From contig JAZJZK010000010.1 in assembly GCA_040389905.1 (NCBI GenBank), positions 38,510 to 102,509 of the forward strand: a stretch of 64,000 nt of DNA. The letters are read 5' to 3'. This DNA is from Gemmatimonadota bacterium. Lineage in GTDB: Bacteria; Gemmatimonadota; Gemmatimonadetes; Gemmatimonadales; Gemmatimonadaceae. Positions 36,001 through 39,000 of the stretch are shown here, piece by piece. Position 1 is the first letter of the stretch, and each line of letters opens with the position of its first letter. Position numbers: made by a program.

Positions 36001-39000
36001 TCTCAAGAAGGCGTTTGCTGGATAGTGGTCGCCGCCTTGACCTGCATCAATGACGAAGGGTTTGACGCGGATTCTGCGGATTGAGCGGATTTTCCGGGAT
36101 GCCTCTACTGCGCGAGGTGCGTTCCGTCGACATCAAAAAAATCTCCATCTTCGATGTCCCGGGGGCATGTGAAGGTGCGACGCGACGCTCACCGGCTCGG
36201 AGTCAATCCGTCGAATCCGCCAAATCCGTAGAATCTGCTTTTCGAAAACTGGGTCGGTGTGGCCGGAATCGGCGCATAGATCGACCCAACGCGAGACAAT
36301 TGCCGTGAGGTACAGGCCGGGTGGTGCATCTCCACACCGATCGGACCCGGCCTAGTACCGCCGCATCACGCCAACAACGATTCCCTGAATGGTGATATCG
36401 TTCTCATGGACGTAGATCGGCGCCATCGTCTCATTCGCCGGCTGCAGCCGAATGCGTCCATCCTTTTCCCGAAAGAACTTCTTCACCGTCGCCGAATTGC
36501 CGTGCAACATGGCGATGACCATTTCGCCGTTGTCCGCACTCTGGCGCTGGTTCACGACGACGAAATCGCCATCGCGAATCTGCTCCTCGATCATTGAGTT
36601 CCCACGCACCCGCAGCACGTAATGATTGCCACCGCGCTGAACGAATGAATCCGGTACCGCAATTGATTCCTGGTGCGTAATGGCCTCGATGGGCACGCCG
36701 GCAGCGACGGCTCCCAACAACGGCAGCTCGATCGCCCTCGGCATGAGATCGCTCGGGAGGATCTCGATGGCGCGGCTTTCATTGTATGACCGCTTGATGA
36801 ACCCTTTTCGCTCCAGATTACTGAGGTGTTCGTGGACGGTGGCCAGCGAGCTATAACTGAAATTCTCCGCAATCTCCTCAAAGCTCGGCGCATAGCCGTT
36901 TTGCTCCGAGTAGAGCGAGAGATAGTTTAGAATCTCGCGTTGGCGTTTCGTGAGCGGCATCTGGGCTCCTTCCGATGAGTTTCGCAAGCGAACACCCGCC
37001 GCTCGCGGTCCTGCCCGAACAACCCCCGAATAGATTAGCCGAATAAGTCCCGAAGTGCAAGCATATTCTAATTGGCTACCACCAACTGGCACCCTCGGAC
37101 GCATTTCGGCCGAGGCGACGATTCGTGCACAGGCGCTGGAGCCGTTCCGCGCTCAGCTGGAATCGGCAATCGCCGGGCGGCCGGCCACCGACGCATTCGG
37201 GGCCGCGCTCCGTGCATCAACCGGCATATCCGTGATCGCCGAGGTGAAACGCCGGAGTCCGTCGAAAGGCGCGATCGCTGACGCACTCGGAGCAGCCCAA
37301 CAGGCGGAGGCCTACCGGCAAGGAGGCGCGGCCTGCGTCAGCATCCTGACCGAACCGGCGTACTTCGGAGGGAGCAACGAGGATCTCCTCGATGTTCGGC
37401 GACAGGTGGACATACCAGCCCTCAAGAAGGACTTCCACGTCGCGCCAATTCAACTGCTCGAAGCGCGCGCGCTCGGAGCCTCGGCGGCCCTCATCATCGT
37501 GAGAGCGCTTTCGCCGACAGGCCTGGCGGAAATGATGGAAGCCGGTCGAGCCCTGAATCTGGAACTCCTGGTGGAGGTCCGTGATGAGGGCGAACTCGAA
37601 CGCGCCCTCGACGCAGGGGCCACCATCGTCGGCGTCAATAATCGTGACCTCGAGACGCTGATCATCGATGGGGGCACAGCCGAGCGCATTATCCCGCTCA
37701 TTCCGGTGTCTGTGACTGCCGTCGCTGAAAGTGGCGTGGCGCGTCGTGAAGATGTTCATCGCTACGCCGATGCCGGCGCAGACGCAGTGCTGGTGGGCTC
37801 GACGCTCTCAGCATCGCCCGATCCGGTCGCCGCAACGCGCGCTCTCGCGGGTGTGCCAAGGAGGTCCCGTGCCCGCTGACGTGAAGATCTGTGGCCTGAC
37901 GAGGTCGGTGGACGCGGAGTTCGCGGATGCAGCGGGGGCTGCGTACCTCGGAGTGATCTTCGCTGGCGGACCCCGGCAGCGCACGCCGGCAGAGTCGCGG
38001 GCCACCTTGGCTGGGCGACGCGCCAGAAAGGTAGGCGTCTTCGGGATGCAGCCCGATGAGGAAATCGCGAGTATATCTTCCATGGTCGGACTCGACGTCC
38101 TTCAGTTACACGGTAGAAGCACGCCAGACCGAGTTGTCGGTCTGCGCGCGGCCACGGGTCTGGAAATCTGGGCGGTCGTGCGAACGGCGACCGGGCATCT
38201 GCCGGAGGGAATCGACGAACTGGCCGACGCGGCCGATGCCCTTGTGATCGATGCGCTGGTGCCAGGCCAGCTTGGTGGGACCGGCACAGTGATTCCGTGG
38301 CTGCAACTGGGGGAGGCGCTCGATGAGATGGCGTCGGGCCACCGAATCGTGCTCGCGGGTGGCTTGACCGCTGAGAACGTTTCCGAGGCAATTGACTACG
38401 TTTCGCCTACTGTGGTGGACGTATCGTCCGGCGTCGAATCGGCGCCGGGCATCAAGGATCAGATGCGCGTCCGTGCGTTCATCGCCGCGGCGCGCGAGAC
38501 TGGAGCGGATCGATGAGTGTGTCAGTGCACCCCTCTACGCGGTTTGGCGCATTCGGCGGGAAGTACGTTCCCGAGACACTGATTCCCGCGCTCGAGGAGC
38601 TCGAGGACGCATACGCTGCCGCACAGGCAGATGCCTCGTTTCGCGAAGACCTGTCCTTCATGCTCTCATCGTACGTCGGGCGGCCCTCTCCGCTGAGCGA
38701 AGCGCCTCGGCTCTCGGAGCGTGTTGGCGCTCGCGTGTTGCTCAAGCGCGAAGACCTCAACCACACGGGCGCCCACAAGATCAACAACACCGTCGGACAG
38801 GTGCTCCTGGCGCGGCGAATGGGCAAGCCGCGGATCATCGCGGAAACTGGTGCGGGGCAGCACGGCGTCGCGACCGCGACGGTCTGCGCTCGATTCGGGC
38901 TGGAATGCGTGGTGTACATGGGCGAGGAGGACATGCGGCGGCAGTCGCTCAACGTCTTCCGGATGCGGCTGATGGGTGCCACAGTGGTTCCCGTCACGAG

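Follow-up and report, generated by a model that had tools for sequence, protein, structure and literature searches.

In the SOS response, RecA filaments that form after DNA damage trigger the self-cleavage of LexA, which lifts repression. The LexA consensus of Acidobacterium capsulatum, established by Mazon et al. in 2006, is reportedly GTTC-N7-GTTC, and the Patescibacteria motif of Sanchez-Osuna, Barbe, and Erill from 2017 is said to be a direct repeat that resembles the one of Acidobacteria. Both studies are cited in passages of PMC7739468 (PMID 16549674 and PMID 28618189, respectively), which state that LexA evolved the recognition of direct repeats several times, and Table S2 of PMC8565304, which has no entry for Gemmatimonadota, draws LexA sites from both. 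According to excerpts of PMC8565304, PMC3323433, and PMC3091678, the alphaproteobacterial LexA box GTTC-N7-GTTC is a direct repeat; palindromes are instead found in E. coli (CTGT-N8-ACAG) and in B. subtilis (CGAAC-N4-GTTCG) (excerpts of PMC3323433 and PMC3091678). A further direct repeat, TTACACATATTTTWTACATA of Balneolaeota, was validated by gel shift, as described in passages of PMC7739468.

The current study concerns the direct repeat TTCGG-N6-TTCGG, two exact copies of which precede lexA in the window, i.e., the whole stretch of 64,000 nucleotides of a Gemmatimonadota genome that was analyzed. We regard this box as the predicted operator of the main LexA of the class Gemmatimonadetes, with a probability of roughly 0.9; the same proposal in an earlier note on this DNA is strongly supported by comparative evidence, namely, conservation, recurrence at unlinked promoters, and a weight matrix. 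The box has the 11-bp period of the alphaproteobacterial motif (4 + 7 = 5 + 6 = 11) and its TTC core in common with the sequence given in those excerpts, but the conserved unit is shifted: conservation extends to the two bases 3' of TTC and leaves the preceding base free, with G ahead of each TTC in only 6 of 130 lexA sites of the class. Written as 5-N6-5, it spans 16 bp like the palindromes of E. coli and B. subtilis, from which it differs by a flipped second half-site that results in a direct repeat. On the other strand the half-site reads CCGAA, which resembles the Gram-positive CGAA and may line up with E. coli CTGTA. The Balneolaeota case, as far as the passages describe it, is similar in that the motif was found by comparative reasoning, is a direct repeat, and has a regulon of lexA, recA, translesion polymerases, a helicase, and a radical SAM gene; its sequence is different, and the validation by gel shift applies to that motif.

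The box belongs to the known direct-repeat type of LexA operators, and what is new, as far as the literature was searched, is its assignment to Gemmatimonadota. Neither a LexA motif of this phylum nor TTCGG-N6-TTCGG as a LexA motif was found in print by a search that left most subscription papers outside; passages of PMC3919608, PMC3789691, and PMC8607333 contributed nothing further. The earlier note had also presented an 11-nt-period direct repeat as something not described before, which is not supported, as the excerpts above already give the same period for GTTC-N7-GTTC, and similar boxes occur in Patescibacteria, Krumholzibacteriota, and Acidobacteriota.

Table 1. Positions of the lexA locus, its promoter elements, and related features (window coordinates unless a contig or locus is named)
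Feature	Position	Strand	Basis or remark
trpD	34940..36025	+	Convergent with lexA
lexA	36352..36960	-	ATG start at 36960, 202 aa; LexA equivalog TIGR00498, 203.5 bits (cut-off, 110.95)
RBS-like purine-rich stretch	36966..36973	-	Ahead of the lexA ATG; putative, from sequence
Operator box 2, TTCGG-N6-TTCGG	37015..37030	-	Exact; just 3' of the -10 element, over the presumed start
Putative -10 element, TAATCT	37032..37037	-	In 58/72 lexA promoters of the class, a box is followed by TA here
Operator box 1, TTCGG-N6-TTCGG	37039..37054	-	Exact; takes up 16 nt of the 17-nt gap between the -35 and -10 elements
Putative -35 element, TTGCAC	37055..37060	-	TTG at this place in 63/72 loci of the class; 3/6 match to TTGACA
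trpC-like gene	37055..37879	+	Divergent from lexA; best TrpC model, 242 bits, below the cut-off of 260
Second full-length lexA gene	L264:5563-6228 = G000 C7:439562-440227	-	Other contig, 3' of gltX; TIGR00498, 166.7 bits, over the cut-off
REP-like repeats resembling the box	G000 C35:32908, C12:6423, C23:176229, C7:258215		

By profile match and sequence features, the protein encoded beside the boxes is a canonical cleavable LexA with the helix 3 sequence SLATVHEHL, an Ala-Gly cleavage site, and the catalytic Ser/Lys region. Read along the minus strand of its promoter, TTGCAC directly adjoins box 1, and a single base each separates box 1 from TAATCT and TAATCT from box 2; box 1 is located 79 nt and box 2 55 nt upstream of the ATG (Table 1). 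The 17-nt spacer of this sigma-70-type promoter is occupied by box 1 and the presumed start by box 2, an operator-like placement in which the box overlaps core promoter elements at a fixed spacer length. The promoter was not flagged by a consensus scan, because only 3 of 6 positions of its -35 element match. The same TTG-box-TA geometry was found at 52 of 72 lexA loci of the class and at 14 of 14 loci of other Gemmatimonadota classes. Between the two boxes, the distance ranges from 5 to 12 nt among the class loci, which suggests that two dimers might bind independently. An RNA element at the lexA promoter was considered and dropped, the region being without any Rfam match. Within positions 34940 to 37879 of the window, lexA is inverted in a trp cluster and flanked by trpD and trpC, as in 27 to 28 of 30 class loci. 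The GTG that opens the trpC open reading frame (ORF) on the other strand overlaps the putative -35 element, and the expression of trpC could be touched by LexA binding, given that its ORF starts right there.

Conservation was assessed in 72 class genomes of families f1 to f10, which are part of about 150 with a lexA match and comprise the 30 best matches, 40 genomes chosen manually so as to cover the families, and another 2. An exact box is located within 300 nt of lexA at all 72 loci; the earlier statement that every genome has the motif twice is correct for its presence, but two exact copies were found at 59 loci and a single one at 13, of which 12 belong to families f4 and f9. The ten half-site bases are fixed at these loci, and the spacer bases are free to vary. 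All 41 class genomes examined for recA have a box with at most one mismatch upstream of it, i.e., the 30 best matches from families f1 and f2 (in-gene control, 1/30) and 11 of 11 genomes from families f4, f8, and f9 (control, 0), the latter mostly in reverse orientation. The box also precedes imuA in eight of nine cases (control, 0) and the radical SAM gene in 19 of 19 (control, 2/19). Its orientation relative to the gene varies, e.g., the recA boxes of family f4 and those of several radical SAM genes are reversed. Genomes that are unpublished contribute to several of these counts (G142 to the 72; G029, G018, and G022 to the 11 recA loci) and to further sets (G029 to gyrB, ruvB, and the second lexA; G389 and G364 to the Acidobacteriota loci without a box), and no conclusion hinges on any of them.

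The raw frequency of TTCGG-N6-TTCGG is not enriched in the window, with 10 matches at up to one mismatch versus 6.95 expected, or in the genome of 5.08 Mb, with 18 exact matches versus about 21 expected. The informative signal of the motif is its position. Ten of the 18 exact matches are intergenic, versus 0 to 5 for spacers of 2 to 5 and 7 to 12 nt (binomial P = 8e-6 at an intergenic fraction of 11.6%, a split that rests on rough home-made gene calls). Nine of the ten precede lexA (two sites), ruvB, gyrB, and genes for a UvrD/PcrA-like helicase, a SocA-like antitoxin, a helix-turn-helix (HTH) protein, an ImuA-like protein, and a radical SAM protein; the tenth has no gene nearby. Every one of the genes listed in the earlier note has an exact box, including recA, whose exact copy comes in addition to these ten, but the two boxes claimed for both lexA and recA are exact only at lexA, as the second recA copy has one mismatch (TTCGT). 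A weight matrix trained on 183 sites, all from other genomes, placed the promoters of the radical SAM gene, gyrB, the HTH gene, imuA, the SocA-like gene, recA (two sites), ruvB, lexA (two sites), uvrB, and the UvrD-like gene in the top 12 of the genome. The inclusion of ruvB, gyrB, and pcrA/uvrD in the regulon agrees with the boxes of the source genome but does not extend to the class: a box was found in only 2 of 30 relatives for ruvB, 5 of 30 for gyrB (3 of 3 in the family of the window), and 2 of 4 for the UvrD-like gene. Class-wide regulation of the three genes is not supported, and they are lineage-specific members of the predicted regulon. Intergenic sites with one mismatch occur at background level (66 versus 35 to 82 for other spacers) and the raw counts are not enriched, so that single weak sites, such as those of uvrB and dinG, are uncertain.

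Several further matches were recorded in the same genome. One-mismatch boxes are located ahead of uvrB (L266:141-2207) and of a gene whose product, a DinG/YoaA-like helicase, has a JAB domain at its N terminus (L264:259-2724); neither gene is listed in the earlier note. The third exact match of the window (positions 53295 to 53310) falls within coding sequence and is probably due to chance. A REP-like family of intergenic repeats resembles the box and accounts for one exact and three one-mismatch matches away from SOS genes (Table 1). Another exact box, mostly in coding sequence, is found near L252:371-3955, where an HTH-like stretch at the N terminus is apparently fused to a Ser/Thr kinase and an ADOP duplicated permease.

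Outside the class, the earlier finding that the motif is missing from other Gemmatimonadota classes was reproduced for TTCGG-N6-TTCGG (0/15), but a sister box, TTCGC-N6-TTCGC, occupies the same place in the promoter at 14 of the 15 loci, and the single miss offers merely 185 nt of upstream DNA. The genome collection was scanned with a promoter-plus-box pattern that allowed G or C at base five. Among the matches listed (80 loci), 48 belong to Acidobacteriota (47 of them C/C) and 9 to Gemmatimonadota (8 of them G/G); 22 precede lexA, some of them in Patescibacteria and in Krumholzibacteriota, where the TTCGG box is exact, and 30 of 55 other downstream ORFs encode a Y-family polymerase (16), a DinB-family protein (9), a radical SAM protein (4), or Pol III alpha (1). 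Samples of the 29 to 30 lexA matches per phylum that are most like the query, not picked by motif, gave an exact TTCGG-N6-TTCGG in 8 of 30 and any TTCG-N7-TTCG in 14 of 30 Patescibacteria, and an exact TTCGC-N6-TTCGC in 7 of 29 and any TTCG-N7-TTCG in 13 of 29 Acidobacteriota; no box was present within 400 nt in the remaining 16 loci of either sample. In Krumholzibacteriota, any TTCG-N7-TTCG was detected at 20 of 29 loci, one of which came from the motif scan. No box was found within 400 nt of recA in five of five other-class genomes and in 9 of 10 genomes of Patescibacteria, operon heads being outside the regions searched; either the regulons differ or they begin at operon heads.

Close relatives of the system are found in the two phyla named at the outset. 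Patescibacteria have a direct repeat as well, with the identical TTCGG-N6-TTCGG in genome data (the published consensus being comparable by its description only), often the same TTG-box-TA geometry, and a helix 3 that can be identical (SLATVHEHL), but a recA box in only 1 of 10 regions, unlike the Gemmatimonadetes with mostly two lexA boxes plus a recA box. Acidobacteriota, including Acidobacterium, share the direct repeat, the 11-bp period, and the place in the promoter, and their LexA proteins are 47 to 61% identical; in contrast to Gemmatimonadetes, base five is C instead of G and the helix reads SLATVHKHL, with Lys instead of Glu. In a quick LexA tree with few outgroups, the box-bearing proteins are located on one side of a branch with 97% SH-aLRT support, with one long outgroup row among them. 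TTCGG would appear as one allele of TTCG(G/C)-N6-TTCG(G/C) in a LexA clade of Gemmatimonadota, Acidobacteriota, Krumholzibacteriota, and part of the Patescibacteria. In Acidobacteriota, the TTCGC box is often located ahead of a gene for a DinB-family protein of 167 to 169 aa and a Y-family polymerase (L133, L141, L175, L185, L189, L198, L201, and L203), and the sites provide a ready outline of the SOS regulon of that phylum.

The difference in base five is paralleled by one in the repressor: helix 3 contains Glu (HEH) in 72 of 72 LexA proteins of the class and Lys (HKH) in 15 of 15 from other Gemmatimonadota classes. This residue, E44 of the main LexA, aligns with E45 of E. coli. According to excerpts of PMC11442139, the CTGT half-site is read by S39, N41, A42, and E45 of E. 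coli LexA, and mutations in these residues changed its specificity; Glu45 is likewise listed in passages of PMC3091678. Across all lexA loci with a box, base five is G together with Glu in 309 of 316 half-sites and C together with Lys in 144 of 162, counts that include non-independent kin and rows of the collection scan preselected for G or C. Krumholzibacteriota are split internally, with 12 of 13 Glu loci of the G type and 7 of 7 Lys loci of the C type. In a tree calculated without the helix columns (117 rows, with 24 of the 72 class rows retained, about half of the Lys metagenome rows randomly dropped, and five long rows excluded), there are four changes of the residue and four of the base, and the two match in 93 of 95 rows. 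Co-evolution of the two is not statistically shown, since there are four changes and, in this poorly resolved tree, only one independent pair on well-supported branches; the tracking of the variable base by the Glu45-equivalent residue is suggestive, with one to four independent switches behind it. Base five is probably read by the helix 3 residue, Glu going with CCGAA and Lys with GCGAA on the other strand, and a causal role of this residue in the choice of the base would fit by analogy, as Glu would face C and Lys would face G in the way that Glu45 faces the first C of E. coli CTGT. An E45K change is reported to shift the specificity of E. coli LexA; no text on this change was found in the literature searched. 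At a few loci each, Phe, Val, or Arg takes the place of Glu45 in LexA next to boxes that have A, T, or T/C at base five (L368, L416, L397, L322, L325, and L327), possibly further letters of the code.

On balance, we lean toward a broader reading, according to which a LexA clade of at least four phyla reads an operator with a flipped half-site via a one-residue code at the Glu45 position (Glu for TTCGG, Lys for TTCGC, and Arg, Val, or Phe for T or A). Joint switches of repressor and operators would have occurred on more than one occasion, also within Gemmatimonadota and within Krumholzibacteriota, and the box would have kept the 16-bp span of the palindromes with one half-site inverted. The box-bearing proteins mostly lack a helix 2 Arg that is present in the second LexA and in box-less relatives: it is missing from 72 of 72 proteins of the class and from 14 of 14 of the other classes, but present in 8 of 16 from Patescibacteria. 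If the broader reading is true, a single E44K swap would re-target a whole SOS regulon. The link between Glu/Lys and G/C offers a one-mutation test of LexA specificity.

The box could also be bound by a different conserved regulator or by the second LexA, with the main LexA being just one of its targets. A period of 11 bp in a direct repeat is typical of other winged-helix regulators, and the genome does encode a second full LexA (Table 1), whose helix STKTVSDLL is unlike the recognition helix of the main protein. This explanation is nevertheless unlikely, as across phyla the variable base changes along with a residue of the main LexA that contacts DNA. The second LexA cannot account for the box, because it was found in only 8 of 101 class genomes and the box in all 72, and the box was found in 0 of 18 regions upstream of its own gene, so that it is unlikely to be the binder. 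No conserved 4 + 4 dyad occurs in more than 6 of these 18 regions.

A still less probable alternative takes the repeat not for a repressor site but for a promoter element that serves either an alternative sigma factor or a damage-response activator independent of LexA. The fixed place of box 1 between the TTG and TA elements would agree with it, but the box is used in either orientation, and its second copy lies 3' of the -10 element at variable distance. Both properties fit a repressor operator. That the conservation before lexA simply reflects the trp neighbors, given the position between trpD and trpC and the trpC start abutting box 1, or a shared promoter ancestry, without a role in DNA damage, can practically be dismissed: the spacer varies freely while the ten half-site bases are fixed, no Rfam match exists in the region, and the recurrence of the box at the unlinked recA, imuA, and radical SAM promoters largely refutes it.

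For LexA as the predicted binder, binding, repression, induction, and dimer geometry can be outlined from the sequence data as follows. A LexA dimer would bind the 16-bp box, with its half-sites one helical turn apart and the two DNA-binding domains most likely arranged head to tail along the same face of the helix; one of the domains would have to flip, because the second half-site is inverted relative to the palindromes. At lexA, one dimer would sit between -35 and -10 and a second one over the start site, and RNA polymerase would be blocked. DNA damage would cause the self-cleavage of LexA and thereby the release of lexA, recA, the imuA mutasome gene, and the radical SAM repair gene, and in the source lineage also of uvrB, ruvB, gyrB, and the genes for the UvrD-like helicase, the HTH protein, and the SocA-like antitoxin.

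For a specialist, this is expected rather than surprising, as LexA motifs are known to vary between phyla and several reports of direct repeats exist. It provides an abundant soil phylum, for which none was found in print, with a well-supported predicted SOS box and a core regulon, and ties Gemmatimonadota to the direct-repeat LexA type of Acidobacteria and Patescibacteria. A cultured host is also offered for structural work on the arrangement of a LexA dimer on a direct repeat; if the one-residue code is true, the LexA of cultured Gemmatimonas and its strong double operator would be a system for solving how the dimer reads such a repeat.

Viral contigs with a double box (L608 to L687) were set aside as unrelated, with lexA or recA in 0 of 80 loci. 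Among the matches listed (27 of the 80), all are tandem arrays with a period of about 11 nt, and these arrays with a TTCGG core are perhaps iterons of replication origins.
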